A DNA stretch of 5,068 nucleotides from a virus: IMG/VR virus record IMGVR_UViG_3300029557_000069, positions 1 to 5,068 of that record; one strand, given 5' to 3'. Of this stretch, positions 1-5,068 are shown in pieces; position 1 is the first letter of the stretch, and each line of letters begins with the position of its first letter. The notes beneath the pieces were generated by a model, which worked only from the letters and a program-made list of their open reading frames with translations, made no database searches and was not told the origin of the DNA. The translations under genes and the position numbers were made by a program.

Positions 1-842
1 GGGTCTCTTCTATTACTGGTAACAGTGTTCCTAATGACGCCACAGCGTCCTCTTTTCAACTTTATGCCGATTTATCTAGCGTTAGTTCTGCCACTATTAG
101 CTCTTTGCGCACAGCTTTTCAGATGCAGAAATTCTATGAACGCCTTGCTCGAGGTGGTAGTCGGTATACAGAAGTGCTTCGCTCTTTCTTTGGCGTAGTT
201 TCTCCTGATGCTCGTCTTCAGCGCCCTGAGTTCCTCGGCTCTTTCACTAAAATGGTTAACATCAATCCAATAGCTCAGACTTCTGCAACCGACGTCACTT
301 CTCCGCAAGGCAATCTTTCCGCTTATGGTGTCACTGCTGCTAAATTCAATGGTTTTACAAAGTCTTTTGTTGAACATGGCTATGTTTTAGGTTTTGTCTG
401 TGCTCGTGCTGACCTCACTTATCAGCAGGGTATTAATAAAATGTGGCTTCGCTCTACTGTTTATGATTTTTATTGGCCTACGTTCGCTCATCTCGGCGAA
501 CAGGCTATTGAGCTTCGTGAACTTTATGCTCAAGGCAATGCAGCTGATACTACTGTTTTTGGCTATCAAGAGCGTTACGCTGAATATCGTTATAAGCCCT
601 CGCAGATTACTGGTAAATTTCGCAGTTCTGTAACTGGTGGCTCTTTAGATAAGTGGCATCTTTCGCAGTTCTTCAAAAATGCCCCTACCTTAAATGAGGA
701 GTTTATAGTCGAAAATCCGCCCATAGAACGTATTGTAGCTGTTACTAGCGAGCCTGAGTTTTTACTTGATGTAGGATTCCGTTATACAACAGTTCGTCCT
801 ATGCCCATGTTCGGTACACCTGGTCTTGTTGACCATTTTTAA
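1..842 (+). CDS. Major capsid protein (Microviridae F/VP1 family), 3' portion. The codon frame starts at nt 3 and the stop TAA is at 840-842.
   Basis: Same frame as the 4132.. portion once the 99-nt terminal overlap is taken into account. Contains LRTAFQMQKFYERLARGGSRYTEVLRSFFG, a conserved microvirus F-protein type motif, and a long C-terminal region ending ...MFGTPGLVDHF. The stop overlaps the SD of the next gene (ttTAAGGAG). Confidence 0.9.
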   Translation, partial: VSSITGNSVPNDATASSFQLYADLSSVSSATISSLRTAFQMQKFYERLARGGSRYTEVLRSFFGVVSPDARLQRPEFLGSFTKMVNINPIAQTSATDVTSPQGNLSAYGVTAAKFNGFTKSFVEHGYVLGFVCARADLTYQQGINKMWLRSTVYDFYWPTFAHLGEQAIELRELYAQGNAADTTVFGYQERYAEYRYKPSQITGKFRSSVTGGSLDKWHLSQFFKNAPTLNEEFIVENPPIERIVAVTSEPEFLLDVGFRYTTVRPMPMFGTPGLVDHF

Positions 843-854
843 GGAGCTGATTTT

Positions 855-1583
855 ATGTCATGGCTTTCTGATACTTTAGGTAGTGTTGCTGGTTCCTTGT
901 TTGGTTCTGCTGTACAAAATCACTATAATTCCGCCAACGCCGAGCAGCAGAATGAGTGGAATGTCGAAAATTATAAACACCGCTATCAATGGTCTGTTGA
1001 AGATATGCGCGCTGCTGGTCTTAATCCTATTCTTGCTGCAACCAATGGTATAGGCGGTTCTATATCTGGTGCTTCTGCCGCTTCTGTAGGCATGAGTGAT
1101 ATAGGTTCTACCATGAACTCTGCTAAAGCCGCTAGCGCCGCTGAGAGGCAGGCAAAGAATGCTGAGCACCTTGCAGTATCTCAAATTGATAAAAACGTCG
1201 CAGAAGCTGATTCTGTGCGTCAGAGCACCCACGGAACAGTACTTCAGAACGGTATCCTTGCAAACGATCTGAATTTGCGTGAGCAGACTTATGAGAAACG
1301 TCTTGGCTACGAACTTGAAAAAATGCGTTTAGAACTTGAAAACATGCGTCTTCAAGGTTCTTACCTTCAATCTGGTGTTTTAAGTAATATTGCCTCGGCA
1401 GGCAGGTCTAATAGTGCTTCTGCTTTTGACCAGATGCAGACTGAGATGCTTGGTATGGAGAGAGATTTTTATAAAGGTATCCAGGATAAAGTTGGTGGCA
1501 CTACTTCTTTCTATAAAGGTATTGGTTCAACTGTCAAAAATGTGCTTGGTTTCCTTGGTGGTCGTTATTTTGGAAGGAGATAA
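855..1583 (+). CDS. DNA pilot / minor capsid protein (VP2/H-like), 242 aa.
   Basis: ATG 855 with SD AAGGAG at 841-846. Position immediately after the capsid gene. Gly/Ala/Ser-rich segments plus a heptad-repeat coiled-coil region (EKRLGYELEKMRLELENMRLQ), as in gokushovirus VP2 pilot proteins. Confidence 0.8.
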   Translation: MSWLSDTLGSVAGSLFGSAVQNHYNSANAEQQNEWNVENYKHRYQWSVEDMRAAGLNPILAATNGIGGSISGASAASVGMSDIGSTMNSAKAASAAERQAKNAEHLAVSQIDKNVAEADSVRQSTHGTVLQNGILANDLNLREQTYEKRLGYELEKMRLELENMRLQGSYLQSGVLSNIASAGRSNSASAFDQMQTEMLGMERDFYKGIQDKVGGTTSFYKGIGSTVKNVLGFLGGRYFGRR

Positions 1584-1588
1584 TTTTT

Positions 1589-1828
1589 ATGTCTAACAAA
1601 ACTACTATGATTTTAACTTTTATTGTTTCTGTCGTTGTACCTTTTATCCAGGAGGTTGTTGACCTTATTGAAGCTCTTAAAGGTAGAGCTTCTTCGAATA
1701 CTGTTACTGCTAAAAAAGTTGCTTCGGACTTTCAAGCCGATGTTGCGCAGCTTGTTGAGCCAGTTGCTAATAAGAATGATTCTAAAAAAACTAGCCGTTT
1801 TTTCGGTTCTTGGAGGGATGCTAAATGA
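1589..1828 (+). CDS. Small protein with a single N-terminal transmembrane helix, 79 aa. Unknown function; candidate membrane/lysis protein.
   Basis: ATG 1589 with SD AAGGAG at 1574-1579. Starts 5 nt after the VP2 stop. The stop TGA (1826-1828) overlaps the ATG (1825-1827) of the next gene. N-terminus TMILTFIVSVVVPFI is hydrophobic (~17 aa, with Pro), followed by a charged hydrophilic tail. Confidence 0.6.
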   Translation: MSNKTTMILTFIVSVVVPFIQEVVDLIEALKGRASSNTVTAKKVASDFQADVAQLVEPVANKNDSKKTSRFFGSWRDAK

Positions 1829-1935
1829 GGCGACGTCGCTTATCTAAACGAGGTTCTCGCCGTCTTTTTCGGCGTACTTCCAGATCTCGTCGTAGAAATT
1901 TTAAAAGAGTAGGACGAGGTGGATTTAGGATTTGA
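1825..1935 (+). CDS. Arginine-rich small DNA-binding/packaging protein (J-like / gokushovirus ORF8-like), 36 aa: MRRRRLSKRGSRRLFRRTSRSRRRNFKRVGRGGFRI.
   Basis: ATG 1825 with GGAGG at 1812-1816. 17 of 36 residues are Arg/Lys, a composition typical of microvirus J-type DNA-condensing proteins. Translationally coupled to the upstream gene through an ATGA overlap. Too short to appear in the ORF track. Confidence 0.7.
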   Translation: MRRRRLSKRGSRRLFRRTSRSRRRNFKRVGRGGFRI

Positions 1936-1960
1936 CATTCTGATTTAATCCTGATACAAT
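1932..1960 (+). promoter_or_regulatory. Sigma70-type promoter: -35 TTGACA (1932-1937), 17-nt spacer, -10 TACAAT (1955-1960). Drives the replication initiator gene.
   Basis: Perfect -35 hexamer, optimal 17-nt spacing and a 5/6 -10 hexamer. The predicted TSS at ~1967 lies just before SD AGGTGA (1967-1972) and ATG 1978. Confidence 0.7.
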
Positions 1961-1977
1961 CGGTACAGGTGATTAAT

Positions 1978-2889
1978 ATGGTTTGTTATAATCCTGTTCT
2001 TATGTACCCGGTTGAAGGAGCGATTACTAAAAATGGGAAGCAACATTATAGTTTTTACGGTAGCCTTGCCTCTCATCCCGAACTTTCTGGTGATAGCCGT
2101 TTTATTCGTTGCGCTTGCAAGCAGTGTATTGGTTGTCGTCTCGAAAATAGCAGACAATGGGCTGTCCGTTCTGTTCACGAAGCCCGTTCTTCGTCTTCTG
2201 CTTATTTCGTTACTTGCACTTTTGATAATTTTCACTTGCCTAAAGATTTGAGTTTAAGCAAGAAATTTCATCAAACGTTCATGAAAAATCTTCGTCGTGA
2301 GTATGGTAATGGTATTCGCTTTCTTGGCTGTGGTGAATATGGTGAATTGCATGCTCGTCCCCATTATCATTACATTTTGTTTAATATTGATTTTGATGAC
2401 AAAATTTTTCGGTTCCGTACAGATGGTTATAATACTTATACTTCTGCTCGTTTTGCCAAGGTTTGGAAATATGGTATGCATCTTATTGGTGAGTTTAGTT
2501 TTGACGCTGCTGCCTATGTCGCCCGTTACATAGTTAAAAAGCAGACTGGCAAAAATGCTGAGTCTCACTATAAAGGTCGTACCCCTGAATTTATGGTTGC
2601 ATCTAATCGCCCTGGTATTGGTGGAAAATGGCTTGCTGAGCATGGTGAAGAATGTTATTCTAACGATTATGTTGTCATTAACGGTAAAAAGATGCGTCCG
2701 CCTCGTTATTACGATAAGAAATTCGATGAAACGCATCCTCACTGGATGGAGTTTATTCGCAATAACCGTATTGAGAAGATGCTGCATAACTTGGAGAACA
2801 ATACTTTCGAGCGATTGATTGATCGTTGTCGTGTTCAGGAAGGAAAGTATAAATACTTTCTTGGTAGAAAACTTGACAAGGTATTATGA
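1978..2889 (+). CDS. Rolling-circle replication initiator protein (VP4 / gene A-like, HUH endonuclease), 303 aa from ATG 1978. An in-frame GTG at 1969 is an alternative start.
   Basis: SD AGGTGA 5 nt upstream of ATG 1978. HUH motif in ELHARPHYHYILFN (HYH at 2362-2370). Catalytic two-tyrosine motif AAAYVARYIVKK (Tyr codons at 2515-2517 and 2527-2529, YxxxY spacing as in phiX174 A protein YVAKY). N-terminal Cys cluster RCACKQCIGCRLENSRQWAVR typical of gokushovirus VP4. Confidence 0.93.
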   Translation: MVCYNPVLMYPVEGAITKNGKQHYSFYGSLASHPELSGDSRFIRCACKQCIGCRLENSRQWAVRSVHEARSSSSAYFVTCTFDNFHLPKDLSLSKKFHQTFMKNLRREYGNGIRFLGCGEYGELHARPHYHYILFNIDFDDKIFRFRTDGYNTYTSARFAKVWKYGMHLIGEFSFDAAAYVARYIVKKQTGKNAESHYKGRTPEFMVASNRPGIGGKWLAEHGEECYSNDYVVINGKKMRPPRYYDKKFDETHPHWMEFIRNNRIEKMLHNLENNTFERLIDRCRVQEGKYKYFLGRKLDKVL

Positions 2890-2901
2890 CTGTGTTATCA
2901 T
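2873..2901 (+). promoter_or_regulatory. Sigma70-type promoter: -35 TTGACA (2873-2878), 17-nt spacer, -10 TATCAT (2896-2901).
   Basis: Perfect -35, optimal spacing, 5/6 -10. Sits at the 3' end of Rep, immediately upstream of SD AAGGAAG and ATG 2920. Confidence 0.6.
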
Positions 2902-2919
2902 TAAGTCAGAAAGGAAGTG

Positions 2920-3159
2920 ATGCTTATTAGCGAATTTGAAGCTGTTAAAAATTTTTGTCTTAATCGCGGTATTTCTTTTACTTTTAAATTTCGTGGTAGT
3001 AAATATGCCGCTTATCGACTTAAGTCTGATTGCGACAAAGTTATTCGTCTTGACAATGATTACTTTGTCATCAATAACACGTTGCATCTTATGATTCGTC
3101 GCTACTTAATTGCGTTTAGAAAAGGAGATGGTTCTTCTGAGACTTTATTCCATTTATGA
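2920..3159 (+). CDS. Hypothetical protein, 79 aa (MLISEFEAVKNFCLNRGISFTFKFRGSKYAAYRLKSDCDKVIRLDNDYFVINNTLHLMIRRYLIAFRKGDGSSETLFHL).
   Basis: ATG 2920 (GTG at 2917 also in frame) with SD AAGGAAG at 2909-2915 and an upstream promoter. Codon usage resembles the other genes. No recognisable motif. Confidence 0.5.
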   Translation: MLISEFEAVKNFCLNRGISFTFKFRGSKYAAYRLKSDCDKVIRLDNDYFVINNTLHLMIRRYLIAFRKGDGSSETLFHL

Positions 3160-3418
3160 TTCCAAGGCTGAACAGTTCAGCCCTCCACAAGCTTACCACA
3201 ATGACATGCTTGCTTTAAGAGGATTTGAGAGTATTGTTAATGATGATAAAATGCTTATTAAAAAGTATCCTGAAGATTTTAGTATTTATTATGTCGGTAA
3301 CCTTGGCGATACTGATGGCCGTTATTATATTGAGCATTGTGACGAATCCCGCATACCTGTATTGGTTGGTCGCGCAGTAGATTATGTCCAGGATATTGAC
3401 AATATTCCTACCAAATGA
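3128..3418 (+). CDS. Hypothetical protein, ~96 aa. The start is uncertain (ATG 3128, or TTG 3110). It overlaps the preceding ORF in the +1 frame.
   Basis: The ORF opens after the TAA at 3107-3109. ATG 3128 directly abuts AAGGAG at 3122-3127 (zero spacer, so poor initiation geometry). TTG 3110 has no SD. The coding-like composition continues to TGA 3416-3418, just upstream of the terminator. It could also be the downstream part of a frameshifted gene. Confidence 0.4.
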   Translation: MVLLRLYSIYDSKAEQFSPPQAYHNDMLALRGFESIVNDDKMLIKKYPEDFSIYYVGNLGDTDGRYYIEHCDESRIPVLVGRAVDYVQDIDNIPTK

Positions 3419-3424
3419 TAATCT
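3396..3424 (+). promoter_or_regulatory. Candidate sigma70 promoter: -35 TTGACA (3396-3401), 17-nt spacer, -10 TAATCT (3419-3424). Alternatively GATAAT (3417-3422) with a 15-nt spacer.
   Basis: Perfect -35. The -10 keeps the invariant T1, A2 and T6 positions. It lies within the 3' end of the 96-aa ORF and directly upstream of the terminator hairpin and the VP3-like gene. Confidence 0.35.
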
Positions 3425-3446
3425 AACAAAGAGCGTATCAGAAAAA

Positions 3447-3477
3447 GGACGGTCTCGAAAGAGATCGCCCTTTTTTT
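3447..3477 (+). terminator. Rho-independent terminator: stem GGACGGTCTC / GAGATCGCCC with a GAAA tetraloop, followed by T7.
   Basis: 10-bp GC-rich stem (8 Watson-Crick pairs, 1 G-U, 1 mismatch), GNRA-type loop, a run of 7 T at 3471-3477, and an A5 tract upstream at 3442-3446. Located in the intergenic gap after the stop at 3418. Confidence 0.75.
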
Positions 3478-3510
3478 GTACGCCACGCCCGCCGCGTCTA
3501 GGCGCGTACG
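3478..3510. promoter_or_regulatory. GC-rich dyad-symmetry island (GTACGC...CGCG TCTAGG CGCG...GCGTAC) between the terminator and the SD of the VP3-like gene. Candidate operator or origin element.
   Basis: About 30 nt at roughly 75% GC in an otherwise AT-rich genome. The outer arms GTACGC (3478-3483) and GCGTAC (3504-3509) are reverse complements. The inner CGCG/CGCG arms flank TCTAGG. Confidence 0.35.
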
Positions 3511-3525
3511 AAAGGAGGTGAAACT

Positions 3526-4008
3526 ATGAAATTTAAGACAGCTTATGATCCTGCAGAAGAACATGATCATTGTGGCATTGAATTTACTATGCCGTCTCTT
3601 GCAGTTCAGGACGAGAAAGATGAATCCGATATCAACTATATCGTTAATCGCTTTGCAGATGGTCAGAAAGGTATAGCTACTCTTGACCTGGGCGATAGCT
3701 CGCAGTACGCCTTCCTTCAATTTGGAGATGCAACGCTTCCTGGCGACTACAGCACTGCGCTCGAGCTTGTTTCTGGAGTTCGTGAAGAATTCTATAGTTT
3801 ACCCGCATACGTTCGAGCAAAATTTGGTCATGATCCTATGAATTTCATCAACCAATTGAACAATCCTGAAACGCTTGAATATCTCCAACGAGAAGGCTTG
3901 TACGATAGCGATTTATCTTTCAACGAACAACAACAGTCTGGTAGTAATAAACAAACAGAAGAAAAAAGTAACACTTCAACCCAAAATAAAGAAGAAACAC
4001 AAAAATAG
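3526..4008 (+). CDS. Putative internal scaffolding protein (VP3-like), acidic, 160 aa.
   Basis: ATG 3526 with a very strong SD AAGGAGGTG at 3512-3520 (5-nt spacer). Acidic composition (many D/E) and a low-complexity Q/S/N/K/E C-terminal tail. Its position immediately upstream of the capsid gene fits the gokushovirus VP3 size class (~150 aa). The product assignment is from position and composition only. Confidence 0.55.
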   Translation: MKFKTAYDPAEEHDHCGIEFTMPSLAVQDEKDESDINYIVNRFADGQKGIATLDLGDSSQYAFLQFGDATLPGDYSTALELVSGVREEFYSLPAYVRAKFGHDPMNFINQLNNPETLEYLQREGLYDSDLSFNEQQQSGSNKQTEEKSNTSTQNKEETQK

Positions 4009-4056
4009 GCGTCACCGAGCCAGTTACTTACTTGATGTAACTGGCGTAGGTGACGC
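4009..4056. other. Large two-helix hairpin: GCGTCACC-gag-CCAGTTAC-(loop ttacttgat)-GTAACTGG-cgta-GGTGACGC. Candidate origin / complementary-strand priming or packaging structure.
   Basis: Two perfect 8-bp helices (4009-4016 with 4049-4056; 4020-4027 with 4037-4044) separated by a small internal loop. A 9-nt apical loop contains ACTTGAT. Flanked by A-tracts on the + strand, which read as T-tracts on the minus strand. Confidence 0.6.
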
Positions 4057-4068
4057 AAAAATAATCTG

Positions 4069-4108
4069 AAACCTAATAATTGTTTGCTTTAGGTTAATTA
4101 TTAGGTTT
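4069..4108. other. AT-rich hairpin with a perfect 13-bp stem (AAACCTAATAATT / AATTATTAGGTTT) and a 14-nt loop, immediately upstream of the capsid gene SD.
   Basis: Exact reverse-complement arms at 4069-4081 and 4096-4108. The loop gtttgctttaggtt partly repeats the arm sequence (taggtt). Sits in the VP3-VP1 intergenic region. Confidence 0.55.
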
Positions 4109-4131
4109 ACACTTCAAAAGAAGGTGAAATA

Positions 4132-5068
4132 TTGGCTCGAAAAATTAGAGTTCGAGGTCATCGCTTTAGCGATGCTCCTGCAATGTACATGAGGAGAACA
4201 AAATTTGACCGCTCTCATGTTTATAAAACTACTTTTAATTCAGGTAAGCTTATACCTGTTTTTGTTGATGAGATTTTGCCTGGCGATACTACTCGTATGT
4301 CTGTTAATTACTTTGCTCGTCTTTCAACTCCTGTTAAGCCTATTATGGATAACATTTATCTTGATTGGTTTTTCTTTTTTGTTCCCAACCGTCTTGTTTG
4401 GGAACACTGGCAGAATTTTTGCTTTGAGCAGGAAGACCCTGATGACAGCACTGATTATGTCATTCCTACTGTTACCGCTCTTGGTAATACTGGTAACGCT
4501 TATACTGGCTCTCTTTGGGATTATTTCGGTTTGCCCGTAAACACTGATGGTAATCTGTCTGGAATTAACGCCCTTCCGTTTCGTGCCGTTTATCTTATTT
4601 GGAACGAATGGTTTAGAGATGAAAATTTACAGAAGTCCGTAAAGATTCAAAAAGGCGATACTAACGAAGTTTTGGATTCCTCTCGTTCCTCTGATCAGCC
4701 TTCTTGGGTGTTTACCTCAGACACTAGTGTAGTTCCTGGTCTTGCTTGTCCGCCTCGCGGTAAGCGTCATGACTATTTTACTTCTGCGCTTCCCTGGACC
4801 CAAAAGGGTCCTGGAGTAGAGATTCCTCTTGTTGGTAATGCTCCTGTTTATGCTCCTTCTTCTGCTAACGTGCAGAATCCTTCTACCGATGGTATACTAT
4901 ATACTTCTAATGCTGATATTTCTGGTTCCGCTCGCCTTGGTTATGCTCGTGCCGCTCGAGGTGGTAGTTGGGTCTCTTCTATTACTGGTAACAGTGTTCC
5001 TAATGACGCCACAGCGTCCTCTTTTCAACTTTATGCCGATTTATCTAGCGTTAGTTCTGCCACTATTA
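4132..5068 (+). CDS. Major capsid protein (Microviridae F/VP1 family), 5' portion. The gene runs across the circular junction, and 4970-5068 duplicates 1-99. The full protein is 559 aa (4132..4969 joined to 1..842).
   Basis: TTG start at 4132 with SD AAGGTG at 4121-4126 (5-nt spacer). A long ORF in frame 1 is continuous across the 4969/1 junction into frame 0 of the window start. Translation MARKIRVRGHRFSDAPAMYMRRTKFDRSHVYKTTFNSGKLIPVFVDE...LACPPRGKRHDYFTSALPWT...ARGGSW is typical of Microviridae capsid proteins. T-rich third codon positions match the other genes. Confidence 0.9.
   Translation, partial: MARKIRVRGHRFSDAPAMYMRRTKFDRSHVYKTTFNSGKLIPVFVDEILPGDTTRMSVNYFARLSTPVKPIMDNIYLDWFFFFVPNRLVWEHWQNFCFEQEDPDDSTDYVIPTVTALGNTGNAYTGSLWDYFGLPVNTDGNLSGINALPFRAVYLIWNEWFRDENLQKSVKIQKGDTNEVLDSSRSSDQPSWVFTSDTSVVPGLACPPRGKRHDYFTSALPWTQKGPGVEIPLVGNAPVYAPSSANVQNPSTDGILYTSNADISGSARLGYARAARGGSWVSSITGNSVPNDATASSFQLYADLSSVSSATI
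4970..5068. repeat. Terminal redundancy: 4970-5068 is identical to 1-99. This is the signature of a circular genome (unit length 4969 nt) linearised with an overlap.
   Basis: Exact 99/99 match by direct comparison of the two ends. The capsid reading frame is continuous across the implied junction. Confidence 0.95.

Follow-up and report, generated by a model that had tools for sequence, protein, structure and literature searches.

A 79-residue protein with capsid-like conservation, encoded after VP2 in one gokushovirus clade, as a candidate membrane effector for host lysis

orf79 lies between the VP2 and DNA-binding peptide genes

The DNA analysed here is the 5,068-nt virus record IMGVR_UViG_3300029557_000069 of IMG/VR (positions 1 to 5,068; henceforth the window), and our subject is a small gene on its plus strand, orf79, which extends from 1589 to 1828 in the list of open reading frames (ORFs) and encodes 79 amino acids (aa) followed by a TGA stop. 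It is flanked upstream by the gene for VP2, the DNA pilot protein (855-1583, stop codon at 1581-1583; PHROG 8693, E 6.7e-90), and downstream by the gene for a 36-aa Arg-rich, J/VP8-like DNA-binding peptide (1825-1935), which matches PHROG 10695 weakly and whose homologues carry the annotation 'DNA binding protein' in PQ006421 and PQ006337; all named genes are encoded on the plus strand. Because its 99-nt ends (1-99 and 4970-5068) are identical, the window represents a circularly permuted, complete circular genome of ~4969 nt. Its nearest annotated relatives share ~85% DNA identity with it; they come from faeces (human, pig and dog) and bear the names 'Human gut gokushovirus' and Microviridae sp. 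An initial annotation had depicted orf79 as a well-signalled gene for a short protein with an N-terminal hydrophobic helix and a charged tail, and had read it as a candidate lysis or membrane-targeting protein with an architecture like that of E from phage phiX174, or else as a membrane-anchored assembly or entry factor.

orf79 is a genuine gene under capsid-level constraint

orf79 is preceded by the Shine-Dalgarno (SD) sequence GGAAGGAG (1572-1579, plus strand), which is still part of VP2, at its 3' end, stands at a distance of 9 nt from the ATG and is kept along with this start codon in 85/85 related genomes; the gap between the VP2 stop and the orf79 ATG is 5 nt. At the other end, the orf79 stop and the start of the Arg-rich gene share an ATGA overlap (1825-1828, plus strand) that is retained in 84/85 relatives, and an SD-like GGAGGG for the Arg-rich gene can be read inside the orf79 3' end (1812-1817, plus strand), where the stretch TCTTGGAGGGATGCTAAATGA is nearly invariant among the 85 relatives. 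From the sequence, we infer translational coupling of orf79 with the Arg-rich gene.

Among the relatives, 84 distinct nucleotide versions of orf79 collapse into only 22 protein versions, variable sites fall on codon positions 1, 2 and 3 in numbers of 18, 9 and 60, respectively, and the remaining five frames across the gene run into stops in most or all genomes. Taken together, this argues that orf79 is no chance ORF of a T-rich strand. The ratio of nonsynonymous to synonymous substitution rates (dN/dS) for orf79 is 0.053-0.055 and, on a common set of 50 genomes, its value of 0.055 compares with 0.057 for the C-terminal part of VP1, 0.059 for the Arg-rich peptide, 0.078 for VP4 and 0.126 for VP2, i.e. 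the constraint on orf79 equals that on the capsid protein, with the qualification that most of the loci were fetched by similarity to the orf79 protein, which biases its dN somewhat low. In GenBank genomes picked by whole-genome similarity (~85% DNA), the orf79 protein is 85-99% identical. Over the last 13 codons (1787-1825), dS drops to 0.019 versus 0.22-0.36 elsewhere in the gene and so points to constraint at the nucleotide level besides that on the protein motif; presumably, this extra constraint stems from the SD and the coupled start of the Arg-rich gene. What the initial annotation had said about the locus, namely a well-signalled gene between VP2 and a J-like peptide, a strong SD and an ATGA overlap downstream, is thus borne out across relatives by the start signals, the codon pattern and dN/dS.

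orf79 has a three-part anatomy

Alignments of five subgroups, with proteins of 79-100 aa, divide orf79 into three parts. The most conserved is the N-terminal helix MSNKTTMILTFIVSVVVPFIQEVVDLIEALKG (residues 1-32; 1589-1684, plus strand), which comprises a K4 flank, a hydrophobic core (residues 5-20) and an acidic amphipathic juxtamembrane portion (residues 21-32) and conforms to the family pattern M-S-x-K-T-T-x-I-L-T-F-I-x-S-x-V-x-P-F-I-Q-E-V-V-D-x-I-x-x-L-K-G, with I8, L9, F11, P18, F19 and D25 invariant across subgroups. AlphaFold2 predicts one continuous helix (residues 3-32) with a predicted local distance difference test (pLDDT) of 88-97 over residues 1-30 and of 46-59 for the remainder of the protein, and does so alike from 14- and 108-sequence alignments. 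The core, our candidate transmembrane (TM) span, is encoded by 1601-1648 (plus strand), and the invariant P18 by 1640-1642.

The second part is a polar linker (residues 33-66; 1685-1786, plus strand), which differs in length and sequence between subgroups and, with a pLDDT of 46-59, is likely disordered. The third is the C-terminal motif KTSRFFGSWRDAK (residues 67-79; 1787-1825, plus strand), in which R70 and F71 are invariant in all subgroups and S69 is present in most members; this SRF motif usually has an aromatic residue or a proline before it and basic residues after it. Within the clade, the helix has the lowest dN/dS, 0.022 (dS 0.36), followed by the linker (0.099) and the tail (0.12). 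Across subgroups, residues 1-32 are 59-81% identical, as compared to 52-60% for VP1, 33-53% for VP4 and 30-60% for VP2 from the same genomes. Conservation on one helical face, as for a single binding interface, was considered and dismissed (helical moment permutation P 0.48); it is the whole helix that is conserved.

orf79 is probably a membrane protein

The hydrophobic segment TMILTFIVSVVVPFI (residues 6-20) reaches a Kyte-Doolittle 19-residue maximum of 2.06, above the classical threshold of 1.6. Judged by its sequence, it is a short or marginal TM candidate, and orf79 is a probable membrane protein. The charges next to the core, +1 N-terminally and about -1 C-terminally, give a positive-inside signal that weakly suggests an N-in/C-out topology, the opposite of phiX174 E. 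The helix with a proline and the charged tail described in the initial annotation are confirmed in that P18 is invariant and the tail is polar and net-positive.

orf79 belongs to an uncharacterised family confined to one clade

Over its full length, orf79 matches PHROG 23638, a family of unknown function (E 3.3e-51, residues 1-79 on profile positions 1-79 of 79), and its other PHROG matches are weak and concern families of unknown function only. In Human gut gokushovirus KX513872, the slot after VP2 is likewise taken by a member of this family, the 'hypothetical protein' ARQ16029.1, with an identity of 98.7%; in several GenBank records the gene is left unannotated. No Pfam family was found for orf79 at E <= 1 and no match in NCBIfam, a PDB profile search gave nothing below E 1.3, and neither Pfam nor PHROGs holds a holin family profile that matches it. 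When phiX174 E was compared with orf79 by BLASTP, no alignment was obtained at E <= 100, in line with the earlier statement that the two sequences are unrelated, which the Pfam result supports as well.

When 1.84 billion representative proteins were searched with a profile, 30 clusters came up; ~20 are genuine, all with the same architecture and from ~5-kb microvirus contigs, and the others are truncated, frameshifted or chimeric products plus one spurious repeat protein. The latter (P0213) is a 750-aa protein that matched through eight weak repeats only, P0220 and P0223 are chimeric assemblies, and P0205 is not a normal relative but a frameshifted orf79 running into the +1 frame. Homologues in metagenomic gokushoviruses, which the initial annotation had proposed to look for, hence exist (PHROG 23638, ~20 genuine clusters), and homology to a known structural or assembly protein, which it had held to contradict its view, was found in none of Pfam, PHROGs, NCBIfam, PDB and the 1.84 billion representatives. 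A word-indexed search extended the family to ~500-650 clusters at 90% identity; all proteins are 78-96 aa long and nearly all contigs, a handful of exceptions apart, do not exceed ~5 kb. In the assembly collection, 493 blocks contain the exact orf79 sequence, in no case on a contig >10 kb, and 185,579 species genomes yielded a single orf79 match, on a 5.5-kb contig binned with a Clostridiales metagenome-assembled genome (MAG). A prophage form was seen neither in the assembly collection nor in the species genomes; the phages are apparently non-integrating, which fits a lytic or episomal lifestyle.

orf79 follows VP2 in every family genome inspected, with the Arg-rich peptide gene next in most of them, and it is kept in every clade genome examined, no exception; as an accessory gene, it is confined to this one clade. 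We also asked whether it might be a detached or fused piece of VP2 and rejected this. None of the records examined shows orf79 fused to VP2. Records labelled 'VP2' merely reflect an 8-nt overlap, the longer VP2s of sister clades contain no orf79-like C-terminal part, and the C-terminus shared by VP2 and orf79 in the window (RYFG/RFFG) is not conserved in other subgroups.

Other lysis candidates in the window and in other gokushovirus lineages

Hydrophobic ORFs in alternative frames abound in the window, which its T-rich composition leads one to expect. Two hydrophobic +1-frame ORFs in VP4 (2012-2251 and 2297-2533) are open in 76-78 of 76-80 relatives and were considered as E-like lysis genes. 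Synonymous-codon shuffles leave these frames open in 38-44% of cases, the observed stop count is typical and, in more distant genomes, the stops shift position; on the strength of the shuffles and the shifting stops, we do not count them as genes and regard them as products of a T-rich strand. Other alternative-frame ORFs (394, 883, 1390, 1623, 2555, 3225, 4205) and most reverse-strand ORFs were discarded, as they contain stops in some or most relatives. Based on Pfam and PHROGs, there is no endolysin, peptidase or lysozyme among the ORFs of the window, and the ORF lists of two larger family genomes, KT264821 and SFFE01000042, contain no peptidase or lysozyme either.

For context in other lineages, 14 genomes were sampled down the VP1 similarity ranking. 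Three of them have an ORF with a TM segment directly after VP2 that is non-homologous to orf79: PP511348 (2607-2783, 58 aa, with an SD), PP511466 (2571-2720, 49 aa, likewise with an SD; missing from the annotation of the record) and PQ006703 (2852-3058, 68 aa, no SD-like motif found). This suggests that the slot repeatedly takes small membrane proteins. In addition, PP511348 encodes an endolysin-like peptidase (PHROG 894, E 2.5e-37), and PQ006515 a 145-aa protein with an N-terminal TM segment (3803-4240) that matches holin PHROG 6918 (E 1.6e-6). Some gokushovirus lineages clearly carry lysis-type accessory genes, and about half of the 14 sampled genomes have no convincing TM ORF. In enterobacterial gokushoviruses, the VP2-VP8 interval was described as a variable region by Kirchberger and Ochman (PMC7062461).

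orf79 as a candidate effector of endolysin-independent lysis

To our minds, the single most likely reading is that orf79 serves as a host-envelope effector for progeny release through endolysin-independent lysis, and we put its probability at roughly 0.35. orf79 would then be a small single-pass (bitopic) membrane protein, made along with the morphogenesis genes and built from three modules: an N-terminal helix of ~30 residues, the first half of which would form a short membrane span with the invariant proline and the second half an acidic amphipathic juxtamembrane portion; a flexible, lineage-variable linker; and a short SRF-plus-basic C-terminal motif. The protein would build up in the cytoplasmic membrane late in infection, where its helix would engage a conserved host membrane component, for instance an enzyme of lipid-linked cell-wall precursors (as in phiX174 E and MraY), or, alternatively, would self-assemble and depolarise the membrane.

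In support of such a role, orf79 is the sole membrane-like accessory product of a genome that lacks an endolysin, every other ORF being a core gene or the soluble orf80 (see below), and a phage with no visible lysogenic state needs an exit route. Moreover, conservation of the helix beyond that of any phage protein fits a slowly evolving partner, such as a host protein, or obligate self-assembly. The unrelated small TM ORFs that fill the position after VP2 in other lineages likewise speak for this reading. The initial annotation started from the premise that gokushoviruses have no recognised lysis gene; published work bears this out (PMC7062461, PMC3394797), and among reports on gokushovirus lysis, holin or amurin proteins we found nothing on the orf79 family. 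The more specific proposal that orf79 represents the first dedicated lysis family of the Gokushovirinae – stand-alone, highly conserved, endolysin-independent, unrelated to phiX174 E and with an invariant helix that targets a conserved host envelope function – may be entertained, albeit as a doubtful one.

Several observations weigh against a lysis function. Six-gene EC6098 still lyses E. coli (PMC7062461), in Bajarodmic viruses 312 and 235 (59-64% identity in the C-terminal part of VP1) VP2 is followed directly by the DNA-binding peptide, and sister genomes without orf79 show no convincing TM ORF. So such a gene is no general requirement for lysis in the subfamily. Further, orf79 is a stand-alone gene whose strong SD, at optimal spacing, is among the strongest ribosome-binding sites of the genome, it is under capsid-level purifying selection, and it is placed inside the morphogenesis block between two virion components; single-gene lysis proteins (E, L and others), by comparison, are typically overprinted, weakly expressed and poorly conserved. 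Nor is there any similarity to E, holins or any lysis family. As for the membrane span, the uninterrupted core between K4 and Q21/E22 is just 15-16 residues long, and on the Hessa biological scale, applied here in an approximate, position-independent form, the sum for orf79 is -0.2 kcal/mol with 15 residues and +4.2 with 19, as compared to -3.4 for phiX174 E over 19 residues and -5.0 for the 58-aa ORF of PP511348. Of the E-like lysis interpretation in the initial annotation, the gene, the helix with its proline and the tail have stood up; lysis itself would be a plausible function, and the membrane-anchored assembly or entry factor that the annotation gave as its second option is just as tenable.

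The closest functional analogues of orf79 are phiX174 E and small holin-like proteins; by membership, it belongs only to PHROG 23638. E is an amurin (Pfam Microvir_lysis) whose TM helix contains a functionally essential proline; it blocks MraY with the help of SlyD and makes growing cells lyse. Like E, orf79 is encoded by a member of the Microviridae, stays below 100 aa and has a single hydrophobic helix at its N-terminus, in which a proline is conserved, and a C-terminal part with a net positive charge; both genes lie directly upstream of that for a basic DNA-binding peptide (in phiX174, E is just upstream of J). In contrast to E, which shares its DNA with the scaffolding gene, overprinted on it in the +1 frame, orf79 stands alone with a strong SD, its core of 15-16 residues (rather than ~20) is much less hydrophobic, the protein is far more conserved, and its topology signal is weakly opposite. 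Holins have at least one TM domain and a charged, hydrophilic C-terminus, and orf79 has one short hydrophobic helix, a candidate TM span, and a net-positive tail; it has no holin profile match, and the genomes that carry it have no endolysin partner. The holin-like proteins of gokushoviruses are, as orf79 probably is, small membrane proteins, those of PP511348, PP511466 and PQ006703 encoded directly after VP2 as well, yet they are non-homologous to orf79, whose hydrophobic segment is much weaker.

Outside the Microviridae, the lysis proteins of single-stranded RNA (ssRNA) phages (MS2 L, LysM of phage M) resemble orf79 in being small, with one hydrophobic helix, no muralytic enzyme and minimal genomes. 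L-type proteins have a basic N-terminus, a C-terminal TM domain and an LS motif, and most lysis genes of ssRNA phages overlap other genes and show little conservation; going by this description, orf79 differs in its N-terminal hydrophobic segment (residues 5-20), its polar C-terminal part, its stand-alone gene and its high conservation. Small membrane-anchored proteins for superinfection exclusion or host interference (T4 Imm, lactococcal Sie2009 and SPO1 Gp56) are of the same size class and combine an N-terminal membrane anchor with a short effector tail; no profile library showed homology of orf79 to them, however, and orf79 is uniformly kept and constrained in a phage without a sign of lysogeny.

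Alternative functions

Rather than in lysis, orf79 might act in morphogenesis or DNA delivery as an accessory working with VP2 (the pilot) and/or VP1, be it as a minor component of the virion or procapsid or as a chaperone or membrane tether of the pilot protein; its hydrophobic helix would then pack into an interface between proteins or serve to penetrate a membrane during entry. Such a role would suit the location of orf79 in the VP3-VP1-VP2 block, between VP2 and the gene for a packaged DNA-binding peptide whose start its stop overlaps, yet orf79 is missing from sister gokushoviruses whose VP1, VP2 and DNA-binding proteins are similar. A dN/dS equal to that of the capsid protein, and a strong SD, which suggests an abundant product, are what one may expect of a virion or assembly protein, and the core is short for a membrane span; the helix in question, however, is more conserved than any phage protein available as a partner, and orf79 has no homology to a known microvirus structural or scaffolding protein or to a PDB chain. 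The linker, conserved in the clade and diverging between subgroups, behaves as expected with a co-evolving phage partner, while the C-terminal motif common to VP2 and orf79 in the window is not kept in other subgroups. On balance, we deem a morphogenetic function unlikely.

Superinfection exclusion, i.e. blocking DNA entry of related phages as T4 Imm or lactococcal Sie proteins do, or other interference with the host membrane (cell division, for example) strikes us as improbable. Exclusion proteins are commonly small bitopic membrane proteins, and the small, N-terminally anchored, accessory architecture of orf79 together with its clade-restricted distribution would be in keeping with this, as would the weak positive-inside signal, which would put the C-terminal motif outside the membrane. 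Exclusion genes, on the other hand, are usually sporadic and fast-evolving, whereas orf79 is present throughout the clade genomes examined and constrained like a capsid gene; no prophage state was detected, and no family profile matches. Very improbable is a secreted pro-peptide, in which a cleavable Sec signal peptide would export the C-terminal motif (for signalling or receptor-masking, for instance). The order of K4, a hydrophobic stretch, a variable spacer and a short conserved C-terminal motif does recall such a layout, but signal peptides conserve physicochemical character only and here it is residues 1-32 that are the most conserved part of the protein. Besides, a cleavable Sec signal has an n-h-c organisation and keeps small residues at -3 and -1, but residue 29, the candidate for -1, varies between A, S, M and D in the family, with no conserved signal-peptidase site; the AlphaFold2 helix is continuous and confident through residue 32, and a receptor gene would not fit into the genome. 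That orf79 is a membrane-tethered or secreted carrier of the SRF peptide acting outside the cytoplasm seems scarcely credible. The probability left over after these readings goes to functions that cannot be named.

Implications for gokushovirus biology

Gokushoviruses rank among the most abundant ssDNA phages of guts and other environments, and orf79 bears on the question of how they exit the host. With orf79, there is a clone-ready protein of 79 aa that shows capsid-like conservation and recurs in hundreds of metagenomic assemblies, so a concrete and cheap test is at hand. Should orf79 prove lytic, mapping of suppressors would identify its target, which might be a new point of vulnerability in the synthesis of the cell envelope, and a new 'protein antibiotic' would have come to light in phages with which the guts of humans and animals are very commonly populated. 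If it turns out not to be lytic, it still is a strongly selected and often unannotated gene, which belongs in microvirus annotation pipelines. Being confined to one clade, orf79 cannot explain gokushovirus lysis in general; we see in it a testable lead on that question, not an answer, and one of the kind of small phage membrane effectors.

Genome organisation and further observations

The remaining genes of the window, all on the plus strand, are those for VP1 (frame open from 4105, first ATG at 4183, crossing the junction and ending at 842), the replication protein VP4 (1969-2889), VP5 (3110-3418) and the scaffold VP3 (3526-4008). Strong SDs are found 5' of VP2 (AAGGAG; start at 855), orf79 (GGAAGGAG; 1589), the Arg-rich gene (GGAGGG; 1825) and VP3 (AAAGGAGGTG; 3526), and strong SDs speak against a Bacteroidetes host. 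Two family contigs are binned with MAGs (Clostridiales, Ruminococcus), which is weak evidence for a Firmicutes host.

A consensus scan picked out two near-consensus promoter-like sites with an extended -10 on the plus strand, one just 3' of the Arg-rich gene and before VP4 (1932-1960; TTGACA-17-TACAAT with a TG extension, 11/12 matches) and another before orf80 and VP5 (2873-2901; TTGACA-17-TATCAT), with the proviso that the total of such sites in the window is not above shuffled expectation. A terminator-like hairpin follows VP5 (3450-3467, plus strand). These features suggest two transcription units, VP4-orf80-VP5 and VP3-VP1-VP2-orf79-J, and the 1932-1960 site would put orf79 close to the end of the VP3-VP1-VP2 morphogenesis block.

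Between VP4 and VP5 lies a second conserved gene, orf80 (2917-3159, plus strand), which is unannotated in the GenBank relatives examined and overlaps, with its 3' end, the TTG-started VP5 ORF. Its 80-aa product, which gene predictions for public assemblies give as 79 aa, shows 62-84% identity in 73 relatives and is still recognisable in KX513874 (32%), contains the motifs FRGSKYAAY, IRLDNDYFV and LMIRRYL, and has neither a strongly hydrophobic segment nor a significant match in Pfam, PHROGs or NCBIfam (best E 0.06-0.08). In the 5' half of VP4 (1969-2508), synonymous codon diversity among ~70 relatives is ~0.12 versus ~0.24 in 2509-2889. Overprinting as its cause is not supported by ORF openness; among the conceivable sources of the low diversity are an origin, a structure formed by the RNA or DNA, a boundary of recombination and a genuine overlapping gene.

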